Shown here: piece by piece, positions 5,218-48,892 of the stretch
Layout of the letters: the number at the start of each line of letters is the position of its first letter
Position numbering within the stretch: position 1 is the first letter of the stretch
IMG/VR virus record: IMGVR_UViG_3300007171_000004
Span: 160,001 to 224,000 of that record
Length of the DNA stretch: 64,000 nucleotides
Reading direction: 5' to 3' (one strand)
From: a virus
Taxonomy: Duplodnaviria > Caudoviricetes
The notes under the pieces: generated by a model
Databases searched by the model: none
What the model was told of the DNA's origin: nothing
Seen by the model: the letters and a program-made list of their open reading frames with translations, nothing else
Program-made: the position numbers and the translations under genes

Positions 5218-5993
5218 TGGAAAACTTACAGCCACAAGAAGAGCACAGCTTTATCGTCCAAAATGTAACCCTTGGACCTCATTATATTAGTGATATCAGA
5301 ATTCAATTTGATGCACTTGAAGTTATCGACCTAACATGGGAAGATCCTATGGCAATCAAGAAGTCCAAAGATCTTCAAAATTCTCTTCGTAAGGGAATTT
5401 TAAAGCAGATCACCAAAGAGCAATGGGATAGAATTTTAGATCGACAATCTGTTAAGGAAAAGAACGAATTGCTTAAAAGTAAGTCTGATAAGCAAACTCA
5501 AACTTTTGAAATTGATGGAAAGCAGCTTGAAGTTGAAATGATTGATGCTCAAAAGAGTTATAAGGGTAGTGATACAGTAACAACATCTGGACATGCCAAT
5601 GATTCTTTATCATATGCAACTGCTCTAGATATTGCTCAAGCACAAGCTGAAATTCAAGGAAGAGAACTTACAGCAGAAGATTTTGCTGAAATGGTATCCA
5701 AAGATTCTAATTTAGTTCCTCGTCTTCTTTCTCAAAATCTTTCGGCAGTTTCAGGAGATACTAGAACAGGTAAGGCTTATGTAGCAACTGCTCCTAATAG
5801 TTATGCAGATCAAACTCAAGTATCTCAAGTACGCATGACAAATTTTAATAAGGAAGGATATATGGCAACTCCTTCAAATGATTTATCTTCATCTGCTGAC
5901 TTCTTTACTGAAGACGATCCAATTGCTATGGAAATTGACTTAAGTGTTGAGGGTGGTGAAGATGCCTCTGATGGTGGGATTCGCAGACTTTAA
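5217..5993 (+). CDS. hypothetical protein (virion block)
   Basis: TAATG overlap with the upstream gene supports the start MENLQPQ at 5217 rather than 5157. Confidence 0.7.
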   Translation: MENLQPQEEHSFIVQNVTLGPHYISDIRIQFDALEVIDLTWEDPMAIKKSKDLQNSLRKGILKQITKEQWDRILDRQSVKEKNELLKSKSDKQTQTFEIDGKQLEVEMIDAQKSYKGSDTVTTSGHANDSLSYATALDIAQAQAEIQGRELTAEDFAEMVSKDSNLVPRLLSQNLSAVSGDTRTGKAYVATAPNSYADQTQVSQVRMTNFNKEGYMATPSNDLSSSADFFTEDDPIAMEIDLSVEGGEDASDGGIRRL

Positions 5994-6018
5994 GCTCAAG
6001 TGAAGGATTTGAAAGACT

Positions 6019-6053
6019 CAGCTGGGGAAATTATCCTCAGCTGTTCTTTTTTT
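6019..6053 (+). terminator. intrinsic terminator
   Basis: CAGCTGGGGA-AATTA-TCCTCAGCTG followed by TTCTTTTTTT, just after the stop at 5993. Confidence 0.75.
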
Positions 6054-6064
6054 AGGAGTATGAA

Positions 6065-7120
6065 ATGGATGAAATCGTAACCATAAATTCGTATAATGAA
6101 AGTCCTCTATATTTTTATAATACTAGTTTTAATAATCCCGGTATCTACATCGAATGGGAAAGAATCACACCATCTGGTGTTGTAACATATACAGTTCAAA
6201 GAAGTGACTATTTCGATGGAATCTATGCAGATATTGCTAATGTTGCCTATCCAATTAACGAATATGTTGATCCAAATGGAAAAGCAAATTCTTATTATAA
6301 AATAATAGAAAAAGATTCTTTAGGAGCAACACTTTCTACTTCTCAACCATTATCAGGTGATGAGTTATTGATGAAAAGCAGCTTGAGATATGAATTACAA
6401 ACTCTTCTTAATGTGCCAATTTATGATGAAGAAGTTATTTTTAGTGGTGATAGAAAAAGAGCATCTGTTGCATTCCCTTACTGGAACTTCAATCCTAGAC
6501 CAGAACTTAGAATAACTGGATATTCAGATGATGGTGATAGAGATCCTATGATAGTCCTATCTGAAAATACTCCAATTTTGAAAACAAAGAATGGTGCAAA
6601 TAATTACTCATCTGGACTTAAATATAAAACAGATTATATGGGTAATATTTTCTTTCTAAATTCAGCAGGTGAACCAACAGCAGTCCAAGCTTACGATACA
6701 ATTTTAGCTTCATATAACATCAAATTATTTACAGGATCTCATATGAATCATGCTCTTCATATGGCATTACAATCTGTAAACTCACAACCTGGTGCTTCAA
6801 AATATTCTACTGTAGCATCAGCACCTTATTATTACGAACCAGCTTTAATCATTGGCGCTTCATATTATCTTCTAAGAAGCTTACTTACTTCTCTAACTCA
6901 AAGACAAAAAAGACTATTATTAGAAGACCCAGATGCGAAAATTATTGATGATTTAAGAAATACTACTACAATGTACAAGGAAGAATTTGAGAAACTTCTT
7001 GAAAAGCTTCCTCTCGCAAAGCTTCCAAATACAAGAAGTATCACAGTACCAGAATACAATATGCCTGGTGGTAGAAGCAGATTCTTTAGATTTGCCTTTA
7101 ATATTCCTGGAGCTATTTAA
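6065..7120 (+). CDS. putative neck/head-tail adaptor-like virion protein
   Basis: AGGAG RBS. N-terminal FN3-like strand pattern (IEW...YTVQRS...EYVD...YYKI) and a C-terminal helical part (HALHMALQSVN...PALIIGASYYLL) reminiscent of adaptor proteins. Function inferred. Confidence 0.45.
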   Translation: MDEIVTINSYNESPLYFYNTSFNNPGIYIEWERITPSGVVTYTVQRSDYFDGIYADIANVAYPINEYVDPNGKANSYYKIIEKDSLGATLSTSQPLSGDELLMKSSLRYELQTLLNVPIYDEEVIFSGDRKRASVAFPYWNFNPRPELRITGYSDDGDRDPMIVLSENTPILKTKNGANNYSSGLKYKTDYMGNIFFLNSAGEPTAVQAYDTILASYNIKLFTGSHMNHALHMALQSVNSQPGASKYSTVASAPYYYEPALIIGASYYLLRSLLTSLTQRQKRLLLEDPDAKIIDDLRNTTTMYKEEFEKLLEKLPLAKLPNTRSITVPEYNMPGGRSRFFRFAFNIPGAI

Positions 7121-25823: not shown

Positions 25824-26678
25824 CTAAGCAACGCTGATTCTTGATACAGCATAATCGTTTACAAGGGCGAAGCCTAATTCTTCATAAACAACCCATCCAA
25901 GTCTGAGTCTCTTTGGATCGTCAGCTGGGAGGACAGTGATGTCTTGTCTGATAGGCATAGCACCAACGAATTGTGCAGGTGCAAGAACGTAGACAGAGTT
26001 CTTAGGAACCATTGTCGAAACGTGGATGTCTGCGGAGTAGATATGACCGTAAAGACCAGTCATAAGGATATCTCTTTGAGTTGCCTCATCGAAGAATTCC
26101 TTGCCCCAGTTTCTGATATCCTTGTATCTTTGTGGGTGAAGAACAACCTTAGCACCAATGAGCTCATGCTCCTCAATGAGGGTAAGAGCAAGGTTGATGT
26201 TCTCTGGTTGAAGAGTACCGGAGACCGAGATCGACTGGTCAGTAGGAACGCCAGCGTTGATGACCTTGAATACTTCGGTATCTTCTTGTCTTTGGAGGGA
26301 GTCCTTAGCACGAACCTGAGCTCTATCAACGATGTAGAATCTTCTAGCTCTAATTTCGTTGAGTCTGATTTGTGGGTGTGCAGCAAGTTCAATTGTTGGA
26401 ACGAGGAGCTCTTCTGCTTCAACTTCAGCCGAAGGAACAGCACCACGCTTAGGGATGACGTAGGACTTGACAGCTACATCTCTCTCGTAGCGAGCAAGAG
26501 CGCCTTGTGGGAGCTCATCAACCATAAGAAGCTTACGGCCAATTGCTTGATACATAAGGGAGGTCTTGATTGGCTCGACCATAGCTTGTGCCAATGCTGT
26601 ACGTCCCTCGGCAGTCTCAAGAGCCATCGCAATGATTTGCTCTCTCTGCTCGTTTACATTTCTCTTAATCATAGACAT
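25824..26678 (-). CDS. major capsid protein (HK97 fold)
   Basis: ALAQAMVEPIKTSLMYQAIGRKLLMVDELPQG...PTIELAAHPQI...LQRQED...LGWVVYEELGF; last gene of the portal-protease-scaffold-decoration operon; AAGGAG RBS; strong codon bias. Confidence 0.9.
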   Translation of the reverse strand: MSMIKRNVNEQREQIIAMALETAEGRTALAQAMVEPIKTSLMYQAIGRKLLMVDELPQGALARYERDVAVKSYVIPKRGAVPSAEVEAEELLVPTIELAAHPQIRLNEIRARRFYIVDRAQVRAKDSLQRQEDTEVFKVINAGVPTDQSISVSGTLQPENINLALTLIEEHELIGAKVVLHPQRYKDIRNWGKEFFDEATQRDILMTGLYGHIYSADIHVSTMVPKNSVYVLAPAQFVGAMPIRQDITVLPADDPKRLRLGWVVYEELGFALVNDYAVSRISVA

Positions 26679-26712
26679 TTTTAATTTTCTCCTTAATTAC
26701 CTTAGCTCAATA

Positions 26713-27381
26713 TTAGTATGCAGAGATCTGAGTAAAGAAGAGGATGCCAGCAGCTGAATCATAGCTGTCAACACGTCCAACTGCAATACCATGAGCAACA
26801 TTCTGAAGCTTTGTGAGCTTACCAGCGTTAGCACCAGCACCTGGGGTCAAAAGATCACCAGGAGCAGGAGTCCAAGCAGCACCAGCGTCAGTATCGACTG
26901 CGGAAGTCGAGGAAGTAATGACGAACTGGTCAGTTACAAACTGTCCACCTGGGGTATTGAAAACGCCAACGCCTCTGCGTGGGGTCTCAAAGCCAGTAGC
27001 ACCAGCGGTTGGGTTGGTGTTAACAGTAACAGGCTCGTCGATGAAATCGCCGATTGCTCTCTTGGTTACCTTGTACCAGCCGTTGGTATTAGCAACCATA
27101 ACACCGTTTGCATCAGTGTAGGAAGCACCAACTGGATCGTTAAGAAGCATGGTAGCACCAGTTCTTGCACGGTCATCAGACGAGAATCCAACGAACTTAC
27201 CCATTTGGAGGATAAGGGTGTTGAATGGGGTTGTGGTCGAGTTACCTCTGTCTGCCTTGATAACAGTTCCGTCCGACTTGAGCATCAAAGGAGCTCCAGC
27301 GAGGAATTCTGTAGCAGTAGTACCATCAGCATTACATGGGTAGTTGGCAACTACAACTGAATTTAAAGCACGAATAGCCAT
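26713..27381 (-). CDS. capsid decoration/cement protein (putative)
   Basis: Immediately upstream of the MCP, G/A/T-rich, beta-tulip-like FLAGAPLMLKSDG...PGDLLT pattern, same codon bias as the MCP. Confidence 0.6.
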   Translation of the reverse strand: MAIRALNSVVVANYPCNADGTTATEFLAGAPLMLKSDGTVIKADRGNSTTTPFNTLILQMGKFVGFSSDDRARTGATMLLNDPVGASYTDANGVMVANTNGWYKVTKRAIGDFIDEPVTVNTNPTAGATGFETPRRGVGVFNTPGGQFVTDQFVITSSTSAVDTDAGAAWTPAPGDLLTPGAGANAGKLTKLQNVAHGIAVGRVDSYDSAAGILFFTQISAY

Positions 27382-27408
27382 TATATTTCTCCTATATATT
27401 TACGAGGA

Positions 27409-29064
27409 TTAATCCTCAATTTTTGGCATTGTCCAAGTACCCTTAAGGGCACTCTGAATGTCATAAGCTGCACTATTTAAAACAGAGCTTGAAAGTGCAG
27501 GGGTTGTCGAGATACCGTTTGTAGAAGCTGTTCTAACAGACATCTTCTCGGCAGCTGCTGCAGCAACTCTCTCAGCACTGGACTGAGCAGACTTGAGCAG
27601 AAGTTTGGTTTGTCTGATCATAGCGTCAGACTTAAGATTATCGTTGATCATTTGCTCTGCATATGCATCAACTTCTTCATTGGAAATAATTCCAGCAATT
27701 GCAAGCTTGGAAGCACAGGAATAAGAAGTCTTAACTCTAGCCATATCAACAGAAGATGCATTAGTACTAAGTTGATTTTGAACATTTTGTAATTGGTCTT
27801 TTACTAGATCAACTTCTTTTTTATTTTCAATCGCAGCATCACCATCAATGGTTTGAGCTTCAACTGCATCATCCTTCTTGTCATCCTTTTCAGCGGACTT
27901 GCAATACTTGCAATCAGCATCTGCTTCAATACACTTGTCGCAAACTGCCATCTTGGTGCTGCATTGTGCACACTTTACAGCATGAACTTCTACATCCTTA
28001 CCAGCAGTCTTTTCGGACTTTGTATATCCACAGCATTCACAGGTCTTGCCCTTGGATGCAACAGTTGTCTTATGCTTCATAGGCATATCAGTTGGAACTG
28101 CAAACATTTCCATCTTTTCTCCGCCAGCGGAAGGAACTTCTTCCACGCATTCCCAGTCAACTGTGACTTCAAGTTCACCATTGCCACCCTCAAGCTTAAT
28201 TGCTTCAACAGCACTTGGGGTTTGCAAACAATCTGGATTATTTGTTGGAACCTTAGTCTTAACAAAAGTTGGGTTCTCATTCTTAAGGGAATTTTCACCA
28301 TCCAACTTCATTACTGGATAGTCGGTCTCACCCTTATTACCTGCCTTGGTCTTAACGCCTTCAGCCGATGGGTATACTTCTTCTTCTGAAGCAATCTTCT
28401 TCAAAATATTTTCTCTATACGCACGACGTTCAGCTAAGGTTTGCTTCGTCATTTTATTTACCTCATGTGATAATTTGTGCATGGCACTTTCTGTGTCCTC
28501 GTCAGAATCCATATCATCTTCCGAATCCATATCTTCTTCAAAGTCAATTTCAGAATCTTCCCCAAGAACCGATTGAAGCGCCTCATGCACAGCTTGTTGT
28601 GCGGCTTCTAGCTTGTCAGCGGGAACTTCGATTTCAAATGTTGCTACATCATCATCTTCATCTTCTACTTCGTCTTCGTCATCAAATAAATCTACATCAT
28701 CATCGTCTGACATGTCATCATCTTCCATGTCTTCGTCGTCTTCCATGTCATCGTCCATGTCATGATCTTCATCATCCATGTCTTCATCCATGTCTTCGTC
28801 TTTTTCGTCTGCGAAGTCAACAGTTTCTGATTCCTCATCAAGATTAAAAAATTTGCTATCATCAATACCAGCTTCTCTTGCGATAACTGGTAAATATTTA
28901 GCTCTAATTGCACTAGCTACAACTCTTGCTTCATCACTGTCTAAAGAAGCGAATTTTTGCATATCAGATACACAAATTTCCATGTCTTCTCTATCAGTTT
29001 CTTGAATTTCAGCAATCTTCATAGCAGCTAATCTTGATTGAGTAATTTGTTCATTTTTATCCAT
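27409..29064 (-). CDS. scaffold-like acidic protein with CxxC clusters
   Basis: Lies between protease and capsid; D/E/M tract; CECCG, CAQC, CDKC, CKYC; helical C-terminus. Confidence 0.65.
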   Translation of the reverse strand: MDKNEQITQSRLAAMKIAEIQETDREDMEICVSDMQKFASLDSDEARVVASAIRAKYLPVIAREAGIDDSKFFNLDEESETVDFADEKDEDMDEDMDDEDHDMDDDMEDDEDMEDDDMSDDDDVDLFDDEDEVEDEDDDVATFEIEVPADKLEAAQQAVHEALQSVLGEDSEIDFEEDMDSEDDMDSDEDTESAMHKLSHEVNKMTKQTLAERRAYRENILKKIASEEEVYPSAEGVKTKAGNKGETDYPVMKLDGENSLKNENPTFVKTKVPTNNPDCLQTPSAVEAIKLEGGNGELEVTVDWECVEEVPSAGGEKMEMFAVPTDMPMKHKTTVASKGKTCECCGYTKSEKTAGKDVEVHAVKCAQCSTKMAVCDKCIEADADCKYCKSAEKDDKKDDAVEAQTIDGDAAIENKKEVDLVKDQLQNVQNQLSTNASSVDMARVKTSYSCASKLAIAGIISNEEVDAYAEQMINDNLKSDAMIRQTKLLLKSAQSSAERVAAAAAEKMSVRTASTNGISTTPALSSSVLNSAAYDIQSALKGTWTMPKIED

Positions 29065-29118
29065 CTGTTGCTGCTTCCCTTATAATTTTTACCTAAAGTT
29101 TAAGGTATCTTTTTTGGT

Positions 29119-29146
29119 ATTCTAAGATAACAATAAAATATCCTGC
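29119..29146 (-). promoter_or_regulatory. sigmaH-type promoter
   Basis: GCAGGATAT; AGGA-N18-GAAT, downstream of a terminator and upstream of the scaffold-decoration-MCP operon. Confidence 0.7.
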
Positions 29147-29165
29147 TATTATTGCAAGTTATACA

Positions 29166-29196
29166 AAAAACAGGGTAGAAAATCTACCCTGTTTTT
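29166..29196 (-). terminator. intrinsic terminator after the protease gene
   Basis: AAAAACAGGGTAGA-AAA-TCTACCCTGTTTTT. Confidence 0.8.
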
Positions 29197-29216
29197 ATTT
29201 TGTTGTTATTTTAAAA

Positions 29217-32200
29217 TTAGTCGATCCAAGTGATAGTTACATCAAGCTTTGAAGGATCTTTCTTATTTGCAGTAACTGTAGTTCTAGACATAGTTCCACA
29301 TTTACCGCAGAATGTTGAATTTTTGACCTTATTTGCATGTCTATTTCCACATGCTGGGCAGATCATACCAACTGGCAATCTTGCTTCCTTAGTTCTATCA
29401 AAATCTGCAGAAGCAGCTCTTAAATAAGGATCTGGATCAACTGTTGCGGATAATCTGAACATGCCTCTTGCAGCAGCCATTGGCATAGCAGGTGCAGGAG
29501 CAGCTGGCATACCAGGAGCAGCTGGAGCAGGTGCAGTTGCTGCGCCTAATCCCATATCAGGTCCTAAGCCAAGATCACCAGCTGGAGCTTCTGCTGGTGC
29601 TTCAGGTGCTTCTTCTCCACCTTTGCCATCACCAGTTGAAAGAAGTTCAATTGTTTGTGTGATCTTATATCTTGCACCACATGTCTTACACTTTGCATCA
29701 TCAAGAACATCAATATCTACATTCTTAGATCCGCAAACAAGACAGATAGATCCCCATGGAGCTTTTTCACCAGTAGATGTATCATCCGCAGGTGCTTCAT
29801 CATCTGCCATATCATCAGCAGTCATTGCGGAGAGACCTAAATCACCACCACCAAGATTGCCCATATCCATTCCAGCGTTAGCATCTACAGGACCAGGGGC
29901 AGGAGATTGAGGAGCAGGAGCGCCCATTCCAGCCATCTGTGCATATCTCTCAAGAAGCTTAGAGCGTAAAGACTTAGCAGCTACGACAGCATTTTCAGTC
30001 ATAATTACAGGAACGTCTTCGCCATTAAGCTCTGTACCTTCTACTGCATCTTCAGACACTGTATCTACATCATCTGCCTTAAATGTTTTAGTTGTTCTTG
30101 AGGAAACAGTTGCGGTAATATCTCCATTTTCGGTAACAGAGAGATCAGTGAAAGCAAATGTTCCTGGATCTACTGTAAAGCCCTTAGATTGTAAAACTTC
30201 AATTGCTTTGTTCTTAAATGCTTCTTCAAAATTATCATCAGAAGGCTTAATTCCACCAAGATCTTCAACGCAGCAATAGAATCTTACACTTTCAAACTTC
30301 TCTTGTGTAATGTTCATAGCAGCTGTCTTTTCTGCATTTTGTTGAGCAGTGATAGCCTTAGAAATAAGCTTCTCAGCAACAGCAGGTTCTTCAACAAGTT
30401 TCTTAGCAGCTCTTACAAGGGCAGAAGTCTTGATATTATAATTTTCAGAATAGTCAGCGAACCATCCCATTAAATTTTGTGTAATAGTCTGTTTGGATGC
30501 AAATCTTTGTCCCCAGAATTGTCTTCTAGCTCTTGTCTTTGCTCTAGCCTCGGAAACGGATGCAGTCTTAGCATGATTAATATGAGCTTTCATTACATTC
30601 TCATCCATGCCAGCAACTTCATCAACAATCTCATCAGGTGTTGCGCCGGTATCCTTAGCTGCAGTTCCCATAGAGGCGAGTGCAACTTGGAGATCTTCCT
30701 TAGAAATTAATTCATCATCTTCGGAAACAGCGTTGGAGAGTGCAGCCTTAAGTTCTTCGGCTCTAGATGGAGAAGCGTTCATGCCATCTACAGCAGCATC
30801 TTGAATGTCGGCCATAAGAAGCTCTGCGAATCTTGTAACACCTTCCTTGGTAATTTCACCTTCAGATACAGCAACCTTGAGAGCTTCTGATAAATCTGCA
30901 GCAGTGATAGAACCTTGAGAAACAGCATCACCGAGTTCTTCAAGAATAGCTGTTGTGGAAGATTTTGGTTCCTTTTCTTCCTTAAAGAAATCAGATCTTG
31001 CATCTTCCTTAGCTCTTACATCAGATCCAAGAGCAGAAGTTTCTACCATTTCAGGAAGTTGTGGTTCTTCAGCTAATTTACCAGCTGAATCCATAATTTC
31101 ATCAGGTGTAACCATAGCAGCAACAACAGCCTTAGCAAGAGCCTTAACTGCGGTAACCATAACTGTTTCAGCATCTGCGGAGCCATGAGTTCTACATTTG
31201 GACAATCTTTCTTCAAGAGTTCCATCAAGAACACCCTTATTAACCTTAGCGACTAATTCCGAAAGAGTTTCCTTAACTTCTTCGTCCTTAACCTTATTAG
31301 CATAAAGTCCAGCGTCTGCCAATTGCTTTTCGAGAACTTCAATATTTGCTTCAGATCTACCACTATAGTAAGATCCTGCTAATTCTTCTTCTCTGATTTT
31401 ATCGCCTGATGGGTTTTTTCTTGCGTACTCAGCAGCGTTAGCACCACCGAGTTCTTCATTCATAGCTTTATATTCTTTGTTAGTTCTAAGCTTCTCTAAT
31501 TCAACTTCCTTAACACTTCTGTCTGTAGTTGTTTCAAGCAAGGCAGTCTTAACAAATTTATTTAAGTCTTTAAGTAATTCAGAAGCAACCTTAGTGCCTT
31601 GTCCAGATTCCATCATTACTAGAGCATTCTCAGTAAGTACTGGTTCCCAATCAATTTTAACATTGTTATGATAGCCAGAAATTGAACCATCTGTTGACAA
31701 AACAACTCTATTTCCAGCCCCATCTTCAACTTTAAAATCAATGGTGACGGCGGATGCTGTTCTTTTACGTTGTTCAGACGCAATTTTAGCAAAATGATCC
31801 ATTTGATTTTTTCCCTCCGCCCTGTCATATAGGGGCGCATTTGTTTTTATATTTGTATTGCGTCCAGATGCAGATCTAATGACGCTATTAGTTGCCTCTT
31901 TAATTAACTCATCATTAACTAAAGAAGACTTGAAAGATAAAATGCCTTCAGCTAATCTTTCAAACTTCGATTTTCTAGTATTATTTGTACTAGCAAAAAC
32001 TTCTCTTCTATTATCTTTTGATGCCCATACTAACATTCCATTACTATCAGAAGCAGTTGCAATGCCTCCTCCAATAGGTTCACCCATCATTACAGCAGGT
32101 TCTAATATTCTTCCAACATTTCCAGCAGATGTATAGTTTAAATTAGCCATCTGTTGTGGTTGTTGAAGTTGAGGAGCTGCAGGTTGTCCTTGATTGATAG

Positions 32201-33407
32201 GTCTTTGTTGTGCGGTTTGTCCAGTATCAACACCATCATCAATAATATCTTGCATTGTAGATTGTAAATCAGCCATAGACTTAGTGATTTTACCTACATG
32301 TGCAAGATCGATGTTATCTTTCCTTGAGAACATATTCATCACAGCAACTTCCAAGAAATTCAGTGATAAATTAATCAAGTCTAAGATATTTAAGCCAGCT
32401 CTTGGGTCGATTCCTAAAGCTTGCATGACAGCAGAAACAGTAGCATTTTGTCCTGCTCCTGGTTGTGCTAAGAGTTGTCCACCTACAAGAGTTCCAGCGC
32501 TTTGTGCTAATCTGACTGCAGTATTAACAGTATGATTTGCTGTTTTAAGAGCTTGTTGATGTTCAGGAGATTCGTTTAAATGAAATGCTACTGCGATATT
32601 TTTGTATAGTTCGTTAGCTTTCTTTTCTAATTGTCCAGCAGCTTGAAGAATTTCGTCTACATCGTAAATTTCTTCGATTTCACAGGATTCAAAAGCTCCA
32701 TCGCCTACACAAGAGAGTTCAATAAATTTAACCCCATAGTTTTTTTCGTAGATGTGCTTTCCAGAATTAGGATGTTTCTTACCTTTCCACTTTTTAAGAC
32801 AATCGCAGTAATCTTTTTCAGTGTAGGCTTTATTTGAACAATTAGAGCAGATACCGTATTCCACAGAAGCTCCCATAGAAACGTCATGGATTACTCCAGT
32901 TCTAATATTTCTTGCAATATCTGGATAAGCTTCTTCATCTACGAAATAGGTACAGAAAACACAATTTTCTTTTTCGTCCCATTCTGCATATACAACCATA
33001 CCTTTAGCTTGTTCAATATCATCATTTTTATGGTTTGTATAGATTGGTACGCCTTCGAAAGTTTTATAAGAAGGGATTTTTTCGCCTTTAATTTCAACTT
33101 CTTTTAATAATTCTTCTTTACTAAAGTAATCGCCATTTGCATTTACTACATCTGCATCGATAGCTCTAGCACGAACCCAAAGAAGTTTTGCACCCTTTCT
33201 AGATTGCATTTCCTTAACGATATCGAAATCTTTATATTTTTTGAAAACATCATCAGGATTTGCATAGAGTGATTGAAGGCCAATTTTAGCAGCTTCTCTA
33301 AAATTTGTAGAAGCTGTTTTTAGAAGATGTTCTTTTACAAGTTCTCTATCATTAATATCTAGAAAACTCTCAATTGTAATTCTTCCACCTTTGGCAAACT
33401 TAAGCAT
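29217..33407 (-). CDS. prohead (capsid maturation) protease with a long C-terminal extension
   Basis: NANGDYF, GVPIYTNH (His), DVSMGA (Ser) and FIELSCV are HK97/herpes-type protease motifs; Zn insertion CSNC...YCDC; C-terminal Zn ribbons. Confidence 0.85.
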   Translation of the reverse strand: MLKFAKGGRITIESFLDINDRELVKEHLLKTASTNFREAAKIGLQSLYANPDDVFKKYKDFDIVKEMQSRKGAKLLWVRARAIDADVVNANGDYFSKEELLKEVEIKGEKIPSYKTFEGVPIYTNHKNDDIEQAKGMVVYAEWDEKENCVFCTYFVDEEAYPDIARNIRTGVIHDVSMGASVEYGICSNCSNKAYTEKDYCDCLKKWKGKKHPNSGKHIYEKNYGVKFIELSCVGDGAFESCEIEEIYDVDEILQAAGQLEKKANELYKNIAVAFHLNESPEHQQALKTANHTVNTAVRLAQSAGTLVGGQLLAQPGAGQNATVSAVMQALGIDPRAGLNILDLINLSLNFLEVAVMNMFSRKDNIDLAHVGKITKSMADLQSTMQDIIDDGVDTGQTAQQRPINQGQPAAPQLQQPQQMANLNYTSAGNVGRILEPAVMMGEPIGGGIATASDSNGMLVWASKDNRREVFASTNNTRKSKFERLAEGILSFKSSLVNDELIKEATNSVIRSASGRNTNIKTNAPLYDRAEGKNQMDHFAKIASEQRKRTASAVTIDFKVEDGAGNRVVLSTDGSISGYHNNVKIDWEPVLTENALVMMESGQGTKVASELLKDLNKFVKTALLETTTDRSVKEVELEKLRTNKEYKAMNEELGGANAAEYARKNPSGDKIREEELAGSYYSGRSEANIEVLEKQLADAGLYANKVKDEEVKETLSELVAKVNKGVLDGTLEERLSKCRTHGSADAETVMVTAVKALAKAVVAAMVTPDEIMDSAGKLAEEPQLPEMVETSALGSDVRAKEDARSDFFKEEKEPKSSTTAILEELGDAVSQGSITAADLSEALKVAVSEGEITKEGVTRFAELLMADIQDAAVDGMNASPSRAEELKAALSNAVSEDDELISKEDLQVALASMGTAAKDTGATPDEIVDEVAGMDENVMKAHINHAKTASVSEARAKTRARRQFWGQRFASKQTITQNLMGWFADYSENYNIKTSALVRAAKKLVEEPAVAEKLISKAITAQQNAEKTAAMNITQEKFESVRFYCCVEDLGGIKPSDDNFEEAFKNKAIEVLQSKGFTVDPGTFAFTDLSVTENGDITATVSSRTTKTFKADDVDTVSEDAVEGTELNGEDVPVIMTENAVVAAKSLRSKLLERYAQMAGMGAPAPQSPAPGPVDANAGMDMGNLGGGDLGLSAMTADDMADDEAPADDTSTGEKAPWGSICLVCGSKNVDIDVLDDAKCKTCGARYKITQTIELLSTGDGKGGEEAPEAPAEAPAGDLGLGPDMGLGAATAPAPAAPGMPAAPAPAMPMAAARGMFRLSATVDPDPYLRAASADFDRTKEARLPVGMICPACGNRHANKVKNSTFCGKCGTMSRTTVTANKKDPSKLDVTITWID

Positions 33408-33487: not shown

Positions 33488-35893
33488 TTAAACAAATTCT
33501 TCTGTCATATTAGAGTTACCCAATTTTTTTCTAATAGCTTGGGAAATGACATTAATTACATCTTGTGAATGTTCTTTAAGTTCTTTATCGGTAAATCTTA
33601 ATACAGTCCATCCATTGGCAGAAAGTTCAATATCTCTTCTTTTATCCCTAGCAATTTTTTCAGGATTATTGTGCCAAATTTCTCCATCGGCTTCAATTGC
33701 AATGCCTAATTCTGGAATAGCAGCATCTAGTTGATAATCCATTGTAGGTCCAGCTAAATATTGTCCATAAATTGCAAAAGGAAGATTCATAGAAAGAAGC
33801 ATGCTGTAAAGTGATTTTTCTAGACTTGTGAACATTTGTGCTTGAGGTCTATTTAGTTTCTTTTTAGCATATCTGTATCTAATATTTTCATCTTCAGAAT
33901 TTTGCCAGGATGAGAAAACTTGATTTGCTTCATAATTAACTGGGAAAGAAAATTCTCCTCCAAATTCAGCAATTCTTAGGCTATTTCCAAAGCCATCATA
34001 TTCCTCTGGTAATGCTCCTAAGTTTCCTCTTCCTGTCACTGGTGTAATTGATTTAAGGAAAAGTTCATGAGCAACAGATTTAAATTTAACGGAAGCTAGT
34101 CTTTGATTAGAATCTTGTAAATGTCCATTAAGTTTGTCTTTGTAGATTTCATTAATAACATTTGAAGCTAATCTATATGTTTCTGTTTTAGTCTTAGCGG
34201 TAGGAGCTGGTCCCGGTGCTGGTGCTGGTGCTGGAGGAGGTGCAGGAGCTCCCATTGGTGGTGCTCCTATACCCATATCTGGAGCACCCATTCCCATACC
34301 AGGCTCAGGCATTGCTGGTCCACCGCCTGTAAATCCTTGTCCTGTCACTGGTCCTGAAGAGAATCCTGTAAGCATGTCTGTATTAGCAATATTAGGATTG
34401 TTTACAAAACCTGATCCTTGTTCAAATCTTAATCTTTCAATTTCCTGATCTGGGTCAAGTCCAAAAGATTCAATAAGAGTCATATTAGAAATAACTCCAT
34501 TTGAATTAGCAGTAACAAGCATTTGAAGCTTTCCTGTATCGTCTCTTAATTGAAGATCATCGAATTTAATTTTAGGATAGATAATTTCATCTTGTCCTCT
34601 TTCGCCTTCAACAACAAAACCATTCCAGATTGCCACTTGTTTGAAAAGTTGTTCTTCAATCCAGTGTGCAACTTCTCTTCGGAAAGTTTCAAGTCTTTGG
34701 GCCATAGCAAGAAGACCAACTTGAGCATTTCCATATGTAGGACCTTCACCATTAAGTAGAGCCTTGTTGAGCATAAGACCATCTAAAATTTCTTGGTCAA
34801 TTAATTCATATTCGTTAGTTAATTGAAGAACCTTGCCAGAAGCACCATAAAATTCAAAATCAAAAGCATGGTGAGTAACAAGTGTGAGGTTAGGGTCATT
34901 TGCAATTGTGGCTAATTCTTCCTGAACATTGTCAATATCTTCTTGTGATGCAGGTCTTTGATCATTACCTACCTTGACAATTTTAATAGGGAGAATATGT
35001 CTTTCAGCGACTAACCATTGTGATTGTCTTAATTTATCTTTATATGCTAATGTTGGGAATAATGGTCTAATCATAGGTGTGCCATAATCTTCCCAAGGGT
35101 TAGATCCATGTTTAAAGTGCTTGATAGAAATAGGGTTTAATTTAATTGGTTCTCCCCTAAGTATCATTTTCTTTACTGAATCTGGAATTTGATCATAATA
35201 TTCTCTTGGTTGTTTTTCTTGGACAATTCTAATTTCTTCTGCGGATGGTCTGTAAACATATTGTCCTTCTTGATCAATCATTCCGGGCATTTTCATTACA
35301 CTATCAGGATTTAAAATAGAGATAGATTTCCAAGTTGCGCCTTCATGTTGACATTCTTGGTTCTTCTTAGTATCCCAGTTTGAACCATGACAGTGAGGAC
35401 AATCAATTGAGGCTAAAACAAATACATCTCCAAGTAAATGATAAACCTTGGATATTTCTGGGAGCCACTTTTGGAAATTAAGTTTTTGAATGAGTTTCTC
35501 GAAATAATCTTTGACATACGAGGAAGAACATTCGAGTTTCCATCCAGAGAAAGGGTAGTTAGTGTAGAAATTGATACCAGCTGCAATTTTAGGTTCATTA
35601 TTTCTCCACCAGTTCGCCCATAAATAAACTTCTTTTCGTGCATTTGGAATTTGGAATGAAGTAGCAGTAAGGAATGGGGAATAAAAGTTAGGAGATGTTG
35701 TAATATTACCAGACATCTGTGAAAACTTAGTCATATTTGGAGAAACATTTGCTCCAAGAGATGATGCAGCTCTAGATGATGCATAGGCTCTATCAATATT
35801 AAAGCCTTCGGATCCTGTTACTCTTTCTCCGGTTACTGTTTGAGCTGCAGTTTTAAATACTGTTTGTAATGATGAAATGTTTTCTGTTGACAA
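33488..35893 (-). CDS. portal protein with C-terminal DUF559/Vsr-like nuclease domain
   Basis: TTG start with GGGAGA RBS. Portal core (IKHFKH...WEDYGTPMI...PIKIVKVG...PKIKFDDLQL) upstream of the protease; C-terminal LDAAIPELGIAIEADGEIWH...DKRRD..L..NGWTVLRF. Confidence 0.85.
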   Translation of the reverse strand: MSTENISSLQTVFKTAAQTVTGERVTGSEGFNIDRAYASSRAASSLGANVSPNMTKFSQMSGNITTSPNFYSPFLTATSFQIPNARKEVYLWANWWRNNEPKIAAGINFYTNYPFSGWKLECSSSYVKDYFEKLIQKLNFQKWLPEISKVYHLLGDVFVLASIDCPHCHGSNWDTKKNQECQHEGATWKSISILNPDSVMKMPGMIDQEGQYVYRPSAEEIRIVQEKQPREYYDQIPDSVKKMILRGEPIKLNPISIKHFKHGSNPWEDYGTPMIRPLFPTLAYKDKLRQSQWLVAERHILPIKIVKVGNDQRPASQEDIDNVQEELATIANDPNLTLVTHHAFDFEFYGASGKVLQLTNEYELIDQEILDGLMLNKALLNGEGPTYGNAQVGLLAMAQRLETFRREVAHWIEEQLFKQVAIWNGFVVEGERGQDEIIYPKIKFDDLQLRDDTGKLQMLVTANSNGVISNMTLIESFGLDPDQEIERLRFEQGSGFVNNPNIANTDMLTGFSSGPVTGQGFTGGGPAMPEPGMGMGAPDMGIGAPPMGAPAPPPAPAPAPGPAPTAKTKTETYRLASNVINEIYKDKLNGHLQDSNQRLASVKFKSVAHELFLKSITPVTGRGNLGALPEEYDGFGNSLRIAEFGGEFSFPVNYEANQVFSSWQNSEDENIRYRYAKKKLNRPQAQMFTSLEKSLYSMLLSMNLPFAIYGQYLAGPTMDYQLDAAIPELGIAIEADGEIWHNNPEKIARDKRRDIELSANGWTVLRFTDKELKEHSQDVINVISQAIRKKLGNSNMTEEFV

Positions 35894-41939: not shown

Positions 41940-43034
41940 TTAAATTATTCCTTTGATATGATTTTCAAATGTTTTCAAAGAGCTTATGATTGTTTGATCC
42001 ATATTCATATAAGCATAATTAGCAAGTCTTCCACCAAAAATATATTTATCTTTATCAATCATCTTTAAATATTTTCTAAAGATTTCATTATTTTCAGAAG
42101 AATTAATTGGATAATATGGATCATTTAATTTGTTATATTCTTCAGGGAATTCATATGTAATAATAGATTCTTTAATTGGTCTATAATTGAAATATTTATG
42201 TTCTATGATTCTAGTCCAAGGTATGCTTTTGCTTGGAAAATTAACTTGTGCAATTCCCTGATAATCTTCGTGAACTAAATGATGGGAAAATTTAAGAGAT
42301 CTATATTCCAAATCTCCATGAATGTAACCAAAAAATCTATCAATAGGACCTGTATAGACAACATATTTTGCCATCTTATCAAAATCATCTCTAGAGGCAA
42401 AGTAATCTGTATTTAACTCTAGTGGAATATCACCTAAGATTTTTTTAAATAAATCTTCATATCCATCTTTAGGAACACCAGAATAAAGCTTTTCATGGTA
42501 ATCATCGTTGAAATTAAATCTTATCGGCAATCTATTGAATACAGAAGAATCTATTGTCTTAGCATCTCTTCCCCATTGCTTTTCTGTATAGCCTTTAATT
42601 AATAACTCGTAAATATGCTGTCCAACAGAATCTATAGCAAGTTCTTCAAAATTTATGGGGTTTTTAAATTTATAGAAAGATTGGAATAAATCTTTAACTT
42701 CGGAAATAGATGAAAGTTCTGGATAGATTTGATATATTGTTTGAAGATTTATAGGAAATGAATAATATTGTCCATTTGTAAACGATTTAACTTTGTGCCT
42801 GTAATGATTGAATTCTGAAAAGTTATTTACATATTCCCAGATTTTTTCGTTATTAGTGTTGAAAATATGAGGCCCGTATTCATGAACATTGATACCATTA
42901 TAATTTTTACTGTAACAATTTCCACCAATATGATTTCTTTTATCAATTACTAAGACTTTTTTGCCCAGATTATGAGCTTCTCTTGCAAATACTGACCCAA
43001 AAAATCCAGAACCAACAACTAAATAATCATACAT
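41940..43034 (-). CDS. glf: UDP-galactopyranose mutase
   Basis: DYLVVGSGFFG (FAD), HIGGN, HEYGPHIFNT, RIIEHKYF, YYPIN, GGRLANYAYMNMDQ. Confidence 0.92.
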   Translation of the reverse strand: MYDYLVVGSGFFGSVFAREAHNLGKKVLVIDKRNHIGGNCYSKNYNGINVHEYGPHIFNTNNEKIWEYVNNFSEFNHYRHKVKSFTNGQYYSFPINLQTIYQIYPELSSISEVKDLFQSFYKFKNPINFEELAIDSVGQHIYELLIKGYTEKQWGRDAKTIDSSVFNRLPIRFNFNDDYHEKLYSGVPKDGYEDLFKKILGDIPLELNTDYFASRDDFDKMAKYVVYTGPIDRFFGYIHGDLEYRSLKFSHHLVHEDYQGIAQVNFPSKSIPWTRIIEHKYFNYRPIKESIITYEFPEEYNKLNDPYYPINSSENNEIFRKYLKMIDKDKYIFGGRLANYAYMNMDQTIISSLKTFENHIKGII

Positions 43035-45676: not shown

Positions 45677-48600
45677 TCAAATTCTTCTACCTAATGAAAT
45701 TGTCCTAGAACCTGGTAGTCTTTGCATGATTTTACTTGTTAAACATTCATAAGATACAGCAGCTATGGCATCACAAATATCATCTTTATATCCTTGCAAC
45801 GCTGAAATATAATATCTAGAACCTTTCCATTTTTTTTGTAGGAATTGAAATTGTATTTTTGCTTCCTGAATTTCATTAAGATCAAATTCTCTTCCAGTGG
45901 CATCTTTAAACTTACCTCCTGAAAGATCATAAATATCAATCCTATCCTCTCTCAATAATTGGGTAAGTTCTGTGTAAATCTTTTCCTTATATTCCTTATT
46001 AAATTGACGTTCTAATGCATTAATACCAGCACTTTGTAATTTAATAAGAGATGATTGAGAATGCCATTGATCAAAAGTCACTTGTTTAAACTTGAACCTT
46101 TTGTGTAATTCAATTATATATTCTTCAACTTCTCTCTCAGACACAGGTTGGTTTTTAATCATAGGATTCCAAAAATGAATATGATCAATTACAACTCTTC
46201 TTAGAGGTCTATTATCAGGTCCAATTGAGCCATAAATAGGTTCAGAGTGCGCTACAGCAAGAGCATAATAATCAGATGTTCGAGCTGGATCTAAATGACA
46301 ATAATAATCAACTAAAGGCTGACCCTGCTCTCTTCGTCCCACCATTGAAGAAGAATTGAAAAATCTATCAATAGCATCAGGGGTGAACATTGGATCTGAT
46401 GAAGAAGCTCCGAATTCCGCCCCATATTGCATTTGATGTTCTACAGGGTTTTTCTTTTTCTGATCATCTAGCCAAGCTTTATCAATATTAGGATTTGTTA
46501 ACCAAGTAGGTAATCTCATCACTAGAGTTGTTGGATCATCTTGCCTGTTCTCATGTAAATCATATAACAATCCAATAGGGCCTTTAGGGTTAGAAAGCAT
46601 CATCATCTTTCCATCCTTACCAAAAGTAGCTAGAGAAGGTTTCAAGTCATCATAAAGAGAGTAGTCAACACCAGAATCAGGATTGTCTCCGGCCATAGCA
46701 GCTACCTCGTCCATAATAATACACCAACAAGTAAGACCAACAAGACCTGAAGCATTACTAGAACCACAACGCAAAACAAGAGATCCAGGAAATAAATTAA
46801 TACCAGCTACTTCTCTTCTTTCATTTTCTTTTCGGTCATGGTCTGTATAGAATCTCATTTCAAGTTCAGTATCTTTTCCAATAAAGGGTTGAAAATATGG
46901 AGATGCTAAAACAGTCTGCTTAATTTTAGAGAAGATAGCTTTTTTAGCCTGTTCTTCGTTCCTAGCAACATTAAGTAGAACAATCTCGTCAAATTCCATC
47001 AAACCATATCTAGATTGAGGATGATCCATAGAAATTAAACGATATAATTCATAAAGAGCCATGGCAGAAACAAGGAACGAATTATGAGTTGGAATCATAC
47101 TCTTTCCAATTAAATACATATGGGATGGATGTTCTACCTGAATACATTGCATGCCCGGATTAGGAACAGGATTGCATTCTTTAATAAAAACTCTATATTT
47201 ATCAGATTTATCGATTGTTGGTTTATTATCTAATATTGCTTGCTTTCTTGGTAAATTAAATACTTTATCACCAGGGCGAACAGAGTAAGTAATTCTCCAA
47301 CGATCTGAGGTTTTTCTTCCATAAAGTGTTGCATCAGATTTCTTAATACTTGCCTTAAAACCTAACCCACAAACAAGTTCATAATAATCATAAGCTAGAG
47401 TTTCATTAGTGTTGCAAAATTCTACAGTATATTTTTTAGGATCTACATAACCATCAGTATCATTCAAACCTCTTAAAAGCTCTAATCTTTGTTCAATAGA
47501 TGCTTGCTTGTAGATTAATGGAATATGCTTGTTTTTAAATACGCCAATTTCTTTAATCAAATGTAAGAATATTTTATGTGTTTCTGTGTTAGGATGAATA
47601 TAATGTGATTTTTCAATTGTAGAACAGTGTTTAATTGTATGATTGCAATTAGCTTCAATATAATCAAAAATTTCCATATCAATTCCAGTTAATTGATAAG
47701 AAGATTTACAGCCATCTCCTAGCCATGCTCCAAGAAGATAGGGATGAATTAAAAGATCTTGCTCTGAAAATTGAAGGGGTTTTGTAATCTCTATAGCATG
47801 ATTGTACTCTACAGTAAATTTCTCTCTTCTTTCAGTTTGTGAGCCTTTTTTGAGCATCTGTCTAGGCTTACCATATGTTAAAGATTCATAGATTTGTTGA
47901 GTTGTAAATACTTGAGGAACAGGGTCTTTAGAATATTTACCTCTAGATGCGTTTTTTCTTTGAGCTTTCGTGAGAGTCACCCATTCATGATTTTCACCAG
48001 CGACAATTCTATCTCCATTGCTAAATACTAATTCATACGCTTGCTCATCATAATCTATATCAGATTTTGCAATGACTTTAGTAGCTGTTCCATCTGGTGC
48101 AAAAACATAATCTCCTACCTTGACTTCACCCATTGTTGACCACCCAGATGTCGTATATAATGGGGTGTCTAACAGTAACAATTTTCCCGAACGGCGACCA
48201 AGCACTAAAACTAGTTCTTGAAATTTGTATCTTTTAGTACATTTGTTAAGAACCTGCAATCTGAGTTTAGGATCGAACTCTTCAGAATATAGCAGATCTT
48301 TTTCGCTTTGGAAGTTATCTGTAATAGGTCTTGCTTCGAGTTCAAGTACCTGTCTTTCTGAGTCTGGGTTTGTGGCTTCTTCTTTTGCAGCTTTATATCT
48401 TGTTTCTCTAGCGGATTCTGAAAAATTTGAACATGTTAAGCAGGGTGAATTTACTACAGAGAAAATCGTTTTAAGATTCCTGCCTTCGTTATAAAAAGTT
48501 TCAAATTTAAGCTCATTGTCTTTAATATATTCCCAGACACAACCTTTACAGCCATTTCTATCCTCTGGTAAAATATCATCAATTTGCAGAGTAGTGTTGC

Positions 48601-48892
48601 CTTCTTGTCCCATATAGAAGCATTTGAGAATTAATCTTTGCCATGGGTAGGGTTTTAAGTTACAGTAATAAGGATGTTCAATAAATGTTACAATATCTAC
48701 AATTTGATCGGGGTTAAATCGGTCTTTGGGTGGAATCGCTGGTGGTAGTGATTCTGATCTAGTTGCTGGCAATACTTCATCTAAAAAATCGTATCCTTGA
48801 TCTTTAAGAAAGTTTGTAGCGTTAGCAGCATTTTGCAAGAGTTGAGTTTTGAAATCTTGCTGGTTATTTTTATCCTTAACTGTTTTTCGCAT
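45677..48892 (-). CDS. terL: terminase large subunit (intein-containing)
   Basis: Walker A LVLGRRSGK|S after splicing; Walker B CIIMDEVA; coupling MLSNP; nuclease YCHLDP, VTFDQW, DDICDA. Confidence 0.92.
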   Translation of the reverse strand: MRKTVKDKNNQQDFKTQLLQNAANATNFLKDQGYDFLDEVLPATRSESLPPAIPPKDRFNPDQIVDIVTFIEHPYYCNLKPYPWQRLILKCFYMGQEGNTTLQIDDILPEDRNGCKGCVWEYIKDNELKFETFYNEGRNLKTIFSVVNSPCLTCSNFSESARETRYKAAKEEATNPDSERQVLELEARPITDNFQSEKDLLYSEEFDPKLRLQVLNKCTKRYKFQELVLVLGRRSGKLLLLDTPLYTTSGWSTMGEVKVGDYVFAPDGTATKVIAKSDIDYDEQAYELVFSNGDRIVAGENHEWVTLTKAQRKNASRGKYSKDPVPQVFTTQQIYESLTYGKPRQMLKKGSQTERREKFTVEYNHAIEITKPLQFSEQDLLIHPYLLGAWLGDGCKSSYQLTGIDMEIFDYIEANCNHTIKHCSTIEKSHYIHPNTETHKIFLHLIKEIGVFKNKHIPLIYKQASIEQRLELLRGLNDTDGYVDPKKYTVEFCNTNETLAYDYYELVCGLGFKASIKKSDATLYGRKTSDRWRITYSVRPGDKVFNLPRKQAILDNKPTIDKSDKYRVFIKECNPVPNPGMQCIQVEHPSHMYLIGKSMIPTHNSFLVSAMALYELYRLISMDHPQSRYGLMEFDEIVLLNVARNEEQAKKAIFSKIKQTVLASPYFQPFIGKDTELEMRFYTDHDRKENERREVAGINLFPGSLVLRCGSSNASGLVGLTCWCIIMDEVAAMAGDNPDSGVDYSLYDDLKPSLATFGKDGKMMMLSNPKGPIGLLYDLHENRQDDPTTLVMRLPTWLTNPNIDKAWLDDQKKKNPVEHQMQYGAEFGASSSDPMFTPDAIDRFFNSSSMVGRREQGQPLVDYYCHLDPARTSDYYALAVAHSEPIYGSIGPDNRPLRRVVIDHIHFWNPMIKNQPVSEREVEEYIIELHKRFKFKQVTFDQWHSQSSLIKLQSAGINALERQFNKEYKEKIYTELTQLLREDRIDIYDLSGGKFKDATGREFDLNEIQEAKIQFQFLQKKWKGSRYYISALQGYKDDICDAIAAVSYECLTSKIMQRLPGSRTISLGRRI
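47081..48181 (-). mobile_element. class 3 intein with LAGLIDADG homing endonuclease, 367 aa
   Basis: Begins LLLLDTPLYTTSGW, block B GENHEW, block F MQCIQV, ends PTHN followed by Ser; LLGAWLGDG and LRGLNDTDG endonuclease motifs. Confidence 0.88.

Follow-up and report, generated by a model that had tools for sequence, protein, structure and literature searches.

Portal proteins are regarded as passive conduits and sensors, and to our knowledge every DNA cut that accompanies packaging has been assigned to the terminase or else to an accessory protein, HNH or endonuclease VII. Golz and Kemper are said to have found in 1999 that endonuclease VII physically binds the T4 portal protein, gp20. Here we describe a portal gene that encodes its own nuclease domain. 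It lies at 33488..35893 on the minus strand of a 64,000-nucleotide stretch of viral DNA (hereafter the window), which corresponds to bases 160001-224000 of the IMG/VR record IMGVR_UViG_3300007171_000004 (300,536 bp, 33% G+C, estimated 84% complete). The phage is an uncultivated, phage-G-like giant of about 350 kb. The gene product, which we call the portal-nuclease protein, joins a portal core to a DUF559/Vsr-like domain of the PD-(D/E)xK type through a low-complexity tether.

Described systems resemble this protein in one part or another. For the portal part, gp14 of phage G (Donellivirus gee, Bacillus/Lysinibacillus) is the closest cultured relative, a member of the Portal_Mu family with a P/G-rich tail after the crown and a comparable head-module context, but it is 648 amino acids (aa) long, has no nuclease, and falls outside the nuclease-bearing clade described below. 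For the nuclease part, the DUF559 structure 3HRL (Neisseria NGO0050), Vsr (1VSR/1CW0) and I-Bth0305I (3R3P) share both the fold and a composite active site made up of a Glu, a Mg-binding Asp, a general-base His and a second Asp. In contrast to all three, the portal nuclease is covalently tethered to a virion structural protein; it also lacks the zinc site of Vsr and the NUMOD/helix-turn-helix (HTH) region of I-Bth0305I, and, unlike the latter, it is associated with no intron or intein, is not free-standing and is not sporadic.

In overall design, the polyvalent proteins (Iyer et al. 2017, PMC5512222) and the MuF toxins (Jamet et al. 2017, PMC5576092) are similar in that a C-terminal enzymatic domain, often a nuclease, is carried on a head-incorporated portal or portal-binding module, so that incorporation into the capsid is built in. 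Those fusions are polymorphic, conflict-type, often accompanied by immunity genes and usually built through a MuF domain. The portal-nuclease protein has no MuF family among its Pfam matches at E <= 0.1, and instead carries one invariant domain type throughout a deep clade under strong purifying selection. The texts of PMC5512222 and PMC5576092 make no mention of Vsr, DUF559 or MTES domains on portals, our full-text literature searches found no description of a portal-DUF559/Vsr fusion, and the Jug-phage and phage-G multi-omics papers hold nothing relevant on the portal C-terminus. Portal/MuF-enzyme fusions are thus already known as a kind, with the portal-DUF559/Vsr fusion itself apparently undescribed.

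In T4, the structure-specific endonuclease VII cooperates with the portal and packaging motor (Dixit et al. 2011, as cited in PMC9958956); it is a separate protein of another fold that acts outside the head, whereas the nuclease described here is fused to the portal and predicted to be interior. T4 gp20 is also known to accept C-terminal cargo, such that up to about half of its twelve copies can bear a C-terminal green fluorescent protein (GFP) fusion (PMC9958956), and because the crown is interior, such cargo ends up inside the head.

A portal core fused to a DUF559/Vsr-like nuclease

The portal-nuclease gene is one uninterrupted open reading frame (ORF) of 801 aa plus stop, which begins with a TTG start codon preceded by the Shine-Dalgarno sequence GGGAG 6 nt upstream and whose homologues span 100% of its length. 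A preliminary description of the window, made from the letters alone, had proposed that a portal is fused in frame to a DUF559/Vsr-like endonuclease through a P/G/M/A linker. Pfam and PHROG matches within this single ORF bear that proposal out. The positions it gave for the linker (34195-34335, aa ~520-567) and for the nuclease (33835-33540, aa 687-785) are right, and the motifs on which it relied (LDAAIP, IAIEADG..WH, RD and GWTVLRF) are all present in the translation.

The portal core (34385..35758, minus strand; aa ~46-503) comprises the wing, stem, clip and C-terminal crown helices, the latter at aa 453-503. It matches Pfam Portal_Mu (PF06074) at aa 216-469 with 33.3 bits against a cut-off of 23.9, matches PHROG 16240, "portal protein", at aa 38-431 with an E value of 7e-39, and is 29.6% identical to phage G gp14 over aa 46-499. 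A full-length AlphaFold (AF2) model, generated for the monomer from a 40-sequence alignment and of moderate confidence (mean predicted local distance difference test score, pLDDT, of 64), contains a portal-like core with crown helices, a disordered stretch and a folded C-terminal module. When the modelled core was searched with Foldseek, it retrieved T4 gp20 (6uzc), lambda gpB (8k38) and G20c (4zjn) with a probability of 1.0 and E values of 1e-9 to 1e-6, along with the gene transfer agent (GTA) portal and further solved portals. Sequence match, fold and gene context all identify this part of the protein as a portal.

Past the crown, a flexible tether rich in G, M, P and A and of low complexity extends over 34193..34384 (minus strand; aa ~504-567). 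Residues 493-565 are disordered in the AF2 model (pLDDT <50), and the combined P, G, A and M (PGAM) content peaks at 93% in a 40-aa window of the tether. Near its end lies an alanine, A566, which is nearly invariant among near relatives. A helical spacer module follows at 33839..34192 (minus strand; aa 568-685), with helices modelled at pLDDT 57-89 and with conserved Y-R-L-A-S (574), R-L-A-S (598), PVTGRG and LPEEYDG motifs. No convincing fold or family match to spacer aa 568-685 was found in the PDB (Foldseek and a wide VIA-align search), the AFDB clusters or the PHROGs.

The nuclease domain itself occupies 33518..33838 (minus strand; aa 686-792) and is an EDxHD-type member of the PD-(D/E)xK nucleases. 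Pfam DUF559 (PF04480) matches aa 688-787 with 34.7 bits against a cut-off of 20.6, and the family REase_MTES_1575 (PF18741) scores 34.2 bits, under its cut-off of 38.2. The C-terminal 237 residues were also modelled separately, with a pLDDT of 80 and a predicted template modelling score (pTM) of 0.77, the nuclease part reaching pLDDT values of about 80-93. When the last ~105 residues were superposed with VIA-align, the best agreement was with the DUF559 structure 3HRL (Z 10.2, root-mean-square deviation (rmsd) 1.8 Å over 93 residues), followed by the I-Bth0305I catalytic domain 3R3P (Z 9.6) and E. coli Vsr 1CW0 (Z 8.3, rmsd 2.1 Å over 100 residues). Foldseek agrees with these neighbours, and RAP/FASTK domains are also among the structural neighbours. 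This is the only DUF559 copy in the record.

Active site and selection

The composite EDxHD site shared by Vsr and I-Bth0305I has been described as Glu25/170, the Mg-binding Asp51/196, His64/Asn208, the general base His69/213 and Asp97/222, with an extra acidic residue at the position of Vsr Phe62 (PMC3239194). Following that paper, we mapped the portal nuclease onto Vsr through a phmmer alignment to 3R3P and family alignments, which gave E692=E25, D723=D51, E734 at the F62 position, D736 at the H64 position, H741=H69 and D750=D97. The active-site motif E734-A-D736-G-E-I-W-H741 (33671..33694, minus strand) aligns to E-V-N208-G..W-H213 of I-Bth0305I; D723 (33725..33727, minus strand) is the equivalent of the Mg-binding Vsr Asp51 and I-Bth0305I Asp196, and D750 (33644..33646, minus strand) that of Vsr Asp97 and I-Bth0305I Asp222.

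All six residues are invariant in 40 near relatives. In a broader set of 119 representatives of 50%-identity clusters, D723 is kept in 116/116, H741 in 117/117, E734 in 113/118, D736 in 115/118, D750 in 114/117, and E692 in the 92/92 in which it is aligned. With its catalytic residues retained in 96-100% of representatives, the domain that the preliminary description called intact-looking appears to be catalytically competent. There are no cysteines in aa 686-801, so the zinc site of Vsr is missing and the domain is of the DUF559/EDxHD type, not a true Vsr; I-Bth0305I is likewise without the Vsr zinc motif (PMC3239194). Family score, fold and composite active site together place the domain in the Vsr-like/DUF559/EDxHD branch.

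As for a module that might direct the nuclease to a sequence, aa 504-690 gave no Pfam or PHROG match to a NUMOD/HTH recognition region. When free-standing close relatives were sought with aa 680-801 as the query, all matches were short ORFs on contigs of <=4.4 kb; most likely these are parts of the same kind of fusion gene.

Selection on the separate parts of the protein was estimated from the ratio of nonsynonymous to synonymous substitution rates (dN/dS; Nei-Gojobori) between the window and an independent Logan contig encoding a 93%-identical, 800-aa fusion, a pair with a dS of ~0.4-0.5. The ratio was 0.035 for the core, 0.068 for the linker, 0.129 for the spacer and 0.043 for the nuclease, in which only 3 amino-acid changes occurred in 107 codons at a dS of 0.51. 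In the 40-sequence set, mean pairwise identity was highest in the core (0.71), slightly lower in the nuclease (0.65) and much lower in the spacer (0.38). Purifying selection on the nuclease is as strong as on the portal core.

Distribution and phylogeny of the fusion

A word-indexed search of 5.8 billion proteins returned 449 matches, and among the best 120 of these (90% clusters, down to 51% identity), every full-length protein has PF06074 plus PF04480/PF18741. In an exhaustive phmmer search, 320 of 1.84 billion cluster representatives matched below 1e-30. With hidden Markov models (HMMs) of the core, spacer and nuclease, a C-terminal nuclease was found in 119 of the best 150 of these 320 50%-cluster representatives; those with core identities of <=35%, as for phage G gp14, have none. 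The nuclease is thus welded to the portal across a widespread clade of giant phages comprising more than 100 clusters at 50% identity. No cultured phage with the fusion was found by megablast and tblastn against 50,697 phage records, in which the best match was phage G, over the core only.

In a FastTree phylogeny of intein-stripped cores rooted on phage G, the nuclease-bearing portals form one clade with a support of 0.97, in which 106/110 tips are positive for the nuclease, and the outgroups, including phage G, have no nuclease domain. The four negative tips comprise two proteins that stop where the core ends, a protein from a low-coverage contig of 1.9 kb, and a frameshifted gene. The preliminary description had asked whether the fusion is conserved or patchy among related portals, and the answer is that it is strictly conserved within one clade. 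Its monophyly and its presence in every complete clade member (106/106) point to a fusion that arose once and has been retained since. Phage G gp14 (L002:5860-7806) ends in a ~140-aa tail rich in Pro, Gly, Ala and Ser with no recognisable domain, and the existence of such a floppy tail on a portal that has no nuclease suggests that the interior tail may be older than the fusion.

The tether is as general as the nuclease. A low-complexity PGAM run (median 76 aa) is present in 115/115 representatives in which both domains could be placed, and the best 40-aa window reaches at least 60% PGAM in all 115, with a median of 88%. The spacer of ~120 aa is limited to a near subclade, its HMM matching 9 of ~119 representatives. 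In 67/115 representatives the gap from tether to nuclease is <=45 residues, and it is mildly basic (K+R 20% versus 12% overall). Such a short gap after the low-complexity run suggests that in most clade members the portal and tether are followed by nothing more than the bare catalytic domain, and that a DNA-recognition module is lacking.

Inteins in related portals

Many relatives of the portal-nuclease protein are 1100-3000 aa long because their portal genes have been invaded by one to six inteins, as indicated by Pfam Hint, Intein_splicing, LAGLIDADG and Hom_end domains. The relatives of 3003 aa (P0233), 2602 aa (P0234) and 2208 aa (P0225), like many others, have as many as five or six large insertions, which recur at core HMM positions ~45, ~63, ~125, ~304 and ~340 as well as at an E|xD site in the nuclease. 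For a single protein, such a number of inteins is unusually large.

In 10 representatives, an intein lies inside the nuclease domain at one identical point, V-E | C(intein)...H-N | C-D-G-x-x-W-H, where it splits the Glu from the Asp of the E-x-D catalytic motif and the +1 Cys takes the place of Ala735; a Cys is found at the Ala735 position in 19 representatives. Conserved functional sites of essential proteins are where inteins usually lodge (PMC4760082). Given that preference, an intein at E|x-D suggests a functional site in a domain that behaves as host sequence and not as a mobile element. The evidence is indirect, yet it is an independent and natural indication that the active site matters.

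The window copy of the gene has no Hint or intein domain by Pfam, in line with the flanking-intein-free reading of the preliminary description. An intein-borne nuclease was rejected for the window copy on this basis, and relatives show the reverse arrangement, with inteins inside the nuclease.

Candidate protease sites in the linker

The preliminary description had also listed four putative protease motifs between portal and nuclease. All four, RLAS (574), RLAS (598), RIAE (640) and RYAK (675), are in the sequence, but only the first two are conserved, in 38/40 and 30/40 near relatives respectively, and only within the near subclade; RIAE and RYAK are not conserved. The aa 574 site, with the consensus Y-[RK]-x-A-[SA], lies just past the tether.

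The 20 head-module ORFs (window 25000-49700) contain 27 copies of a related pattern, [KR][TIVL]A[SQA], compared with 3.8 expected from shuffles, and the other 228 ORFs contain 37, compared with 23.7 expected (~1.6 times). Seven of the 27 head-module copies are in the 1396-aa protease-scaffold polyprotein encoded next to the portal (1.2 expected), four are in a 551-aa protein, and four are in the portal-nuclease protein itself, at aa 14, 102, 574 and 598. This pattern is a candidate for the site code of the maturation protease, and linker cleavage is possible. However, the pattern was defined post hoc from the same head proteins; the aa 102 copy is in a helix of the portal core, which means that some occurrences cannot be cleavage sites; and any such motif is found between core and nuclease in only 19/115 wider-clade representatives. 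The enrichment is real, but its derivation is circular and it does not extend across the clade, so it does not establish cleavage.

Location in the capsid and possible function

Solved portal structures have the clip on the outward-facing side and the stem, wing and crown within the capsid (PMC9958956, a T4 review; PMC11445458, JBD30). Since the C-terminus of the portal-nuclease protein follows the crown, the nuclease domain should lie inside the capsid. By analogy with other portals, about 12 nuclease domains on tethers of 60-100 residues would surround the inner channel mouth in every procapsid and virion; the figure of about 12 copies per procapsid in the preliminary description is a fair estimate from portal stoichiometry. 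An interior location does not sit well with its proposal that the nuclease resolves DNA branches during packaging, as a branch could not pass the channel to the crown side. The arrangement would be a natural case of a GGM/PA-type tether on the portal C-terminus bringing cargo into a capsid, which is of interest for phage engineering.

As to function, we lean tentatively towards a housekeeping nuclease, as opposed to a conflict effector, whose substrate at the portal would be the DNA of the phage itself, a reading that seems quite plausible while falling short of probable. The lack of domain turnover in a deep clade and the core-like selection argue for it, as does the apparent lack of a targeting domain, which would leave the portal as the only "address" of the enzyme. 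The portal would then be the targeting module for the nuclease, in the way that a DNA-binding domain aims a non-specific cleavage module, and the nuclease would act on phage DNA emerging from or resting in the portal. Candidate reactions would include nicking or trimming the first- or last-packaged end, or freeing the anchored end at ejection. The nuclease would have to stay inert on ordinary translocating duplex DNA, and it could work either on its tether or once the neighbouring prohead protease has released it locally. It is possible, if doubtful, that the portal is itself a genome-handling enzyme, its twelve tethered nickase/nuclease domains at the inner channel mouth performing a step that in every phage studied so far is absent or done by the terminase from the outside. 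Such a step might relieve torsional stress by nicking the incoming genome while 350-500 kb are packaged, process or release a genome end that is anchored, or couple a cut from the inside to the filling of the head. A clade-wide fusion conserved like the core would imply an unrecognised, probably essential DNA-processing or delivery step inside the capsid.

Several considerations weigh against a housekeeping role. The whole clade is uncultivated and the role of the nuclease is read from sequence and models; keeping an active nuclease next to 350 kb of packed DNA would call for a specificity or regulation that is not visible in the sequence; and the terminase seems to keep its own nuclease motifs, so that no packaging step is obviously short of an enzyme. 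E734 or D736 is substituted in a few representatives (3-5 of 118). The candidate protease motif that is enriched in the head proteins flanks the start of the C-terminal module, which favours release, and portal/MuF-enzyme fusions have been interpreted in comparative genomics as injected effectors (PMC5512222).

These last two points lead to the main rival to the housekeeping reading, a capsid-packaged effector that the prohead protease would free at maturation, by a cut in the tether or at the beginning of the C-terminal module, and that would be ejected with the DNA to attack host, plasmid or competitor-phage DNA, the portal guaranteeing 12 copies per head. The preliminary description had listed an ejected effector, released on maturation, among its options. 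There is precedent for it in enzymatic domains fused to MuF or portal that are predicted to be injected (PMC5512222) and in MuF-nuclease toxins (PMC5576092), and the protease gene immediately downstream of the portal, the motif enrichment in the head module, the conserved aa 574 site and the nearly invariant A566 would all suit a released domain. We nevertheless consider it rather unlikely. Effector-like turnover is not seen, the same domain having been acquired once, retained in 106/106 complete members and held under a dN/dS equal to that of the core; most members have no targeting domain; and the proposed cleavage motif, besides being defined post hoc and occurring in a core helix, is missing between core and nuclease in most of the wider clade. 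A role in which the fold is kept only to grip DNA, as a genome-end holder or a plug or valve, or to bind scaffold or core, would suit an interior location beside DNA, the few replacements of E734 or D736, and the occasional reuse of PD-(D/E)xK folds for binding, as in the RAP/FASTK domains found among the structural neighbours. A pure binding role is not expected, though, to leave the composite active site, including the general-base His and both metal-binding Asp residues, at 96-100% retention in more than 110 divergent representatives, and we regard such a non-catalytic domain as improbable.

The proposal in the preliminary description that this is a homing nuclease fused to an essential gene, whether selfish or recently captured and of no benefit to the phage, would find support in the structural similarity to I-Bth0305I, a Bacillus phage homing endonuclease whose catalytic domain is among the two nearest solved structures, and in the wealth of mobile elements in this group (an intein in the terminase here and up to 5-6 inteins in related portals). 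Homing-endonuclease ancestry of the domain is indeed plausible. A presently selfish element is very improbable, given that the domain is monophyletic and universal in the clade and not sporadic, is in frame with no intron or intein, has no NUMOD/HTH recognition module, is under selection as strong as that on the core, and is itself an intein target and so acts as host gene. A homing endonuclease or a patchy accessory was accordingly rejected on the tree and selection analyses. Finally, a sequencing or assembly error that joined a portal ORF to a separate nuclease ORF, which the preliminary description named as a possible refutation of the fusion, can for practical purposes be discarded, because hundreds of independent contigs (JGI, ENA, NCBI and Logan) encode the continuous fusion, among them the 93%-identical Logan assembly. 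The observation that could speak for such an error comes from a contig of a metagenome-assembled genome, L004 (JAWVHC010001365.1; 5490-5620), in which the portal and the linker plus nuclease are in different frames. There, the portal frame (522 aa) ends 23 aa past the core, the linker and nuclease ORF runs over 5508-6395 in the other frame, and the change of frame falls at the linker start, where there is no homopolymer. The second frame begins within the linker and has no proper start or ribosome-binding site, which argues for a fused gene frameshifted in L004 and not for two genes joined in the window. The split in L004 may stem from misassembly, from decay of the gene, or from programmed frameshifting that yields short and long portal isoforms.

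Head-module context

The head module is encoded entirely on the minus strand in the order terminase, portal, protease-scaffold and major head protein (MCP), with the portal-nuclease gene between the terminase and the protease and capsid genes. The next gene downstream of the portal (29217..33407, minus strand) encodes the prohead protease and scaffold-like polyprotein of 1396 aa, of which aa 82-242 match PHROG 18299, "head maturation protease". The protease domain, at aa ~54-242, is followed by more than 1100 aa of helical, scaffold-like sequence. Linkers rich in G, M, P and A are common to the portal and this polyprotein, and the polyprotein also has CxxC pairs near its C-terminus.

The large terminase (TerL; 45677..48892, minus strand) is 1071 aa long, compared with ~703 aa in most homologues, and has PHROG TerL matches. 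Its extra ~367 aa contain a LAGLIDADG_3 match and are therefore an intein, which is present in about one in six of the homologues listed. In Pfam, only a weak GpA_ATPase match was obtained, and neither phmmer nor a profile of the TerL C-terminus matched any solved TerL structure. By eye, against canonical TerL motifs, we assigned the C-terminal nuclease motifs H-x-D-P-A..S-D and K-D-D-x-x-D-A, which are invariant in 20 homologues. On this motif reading, the idea that the portal nuclease substitutes for a lost terminase nuclease is disfavoured.

A 364-aa protein encoded within the head module (window 41940-43034, minus strand) matches PHROG 9677, to which no function is assigned there, with an E value of 3.5e-112. 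The MCP gene lies at 25824..26678 (minus strand). At window 26001-30000, over the genes just downstream of the protease (ORFs of 551 aa and 222 aa, neighbours of the MCP gene), the G+C content reaches 0.41-0.45, compared with ~0.31-0.35 over most of the window.

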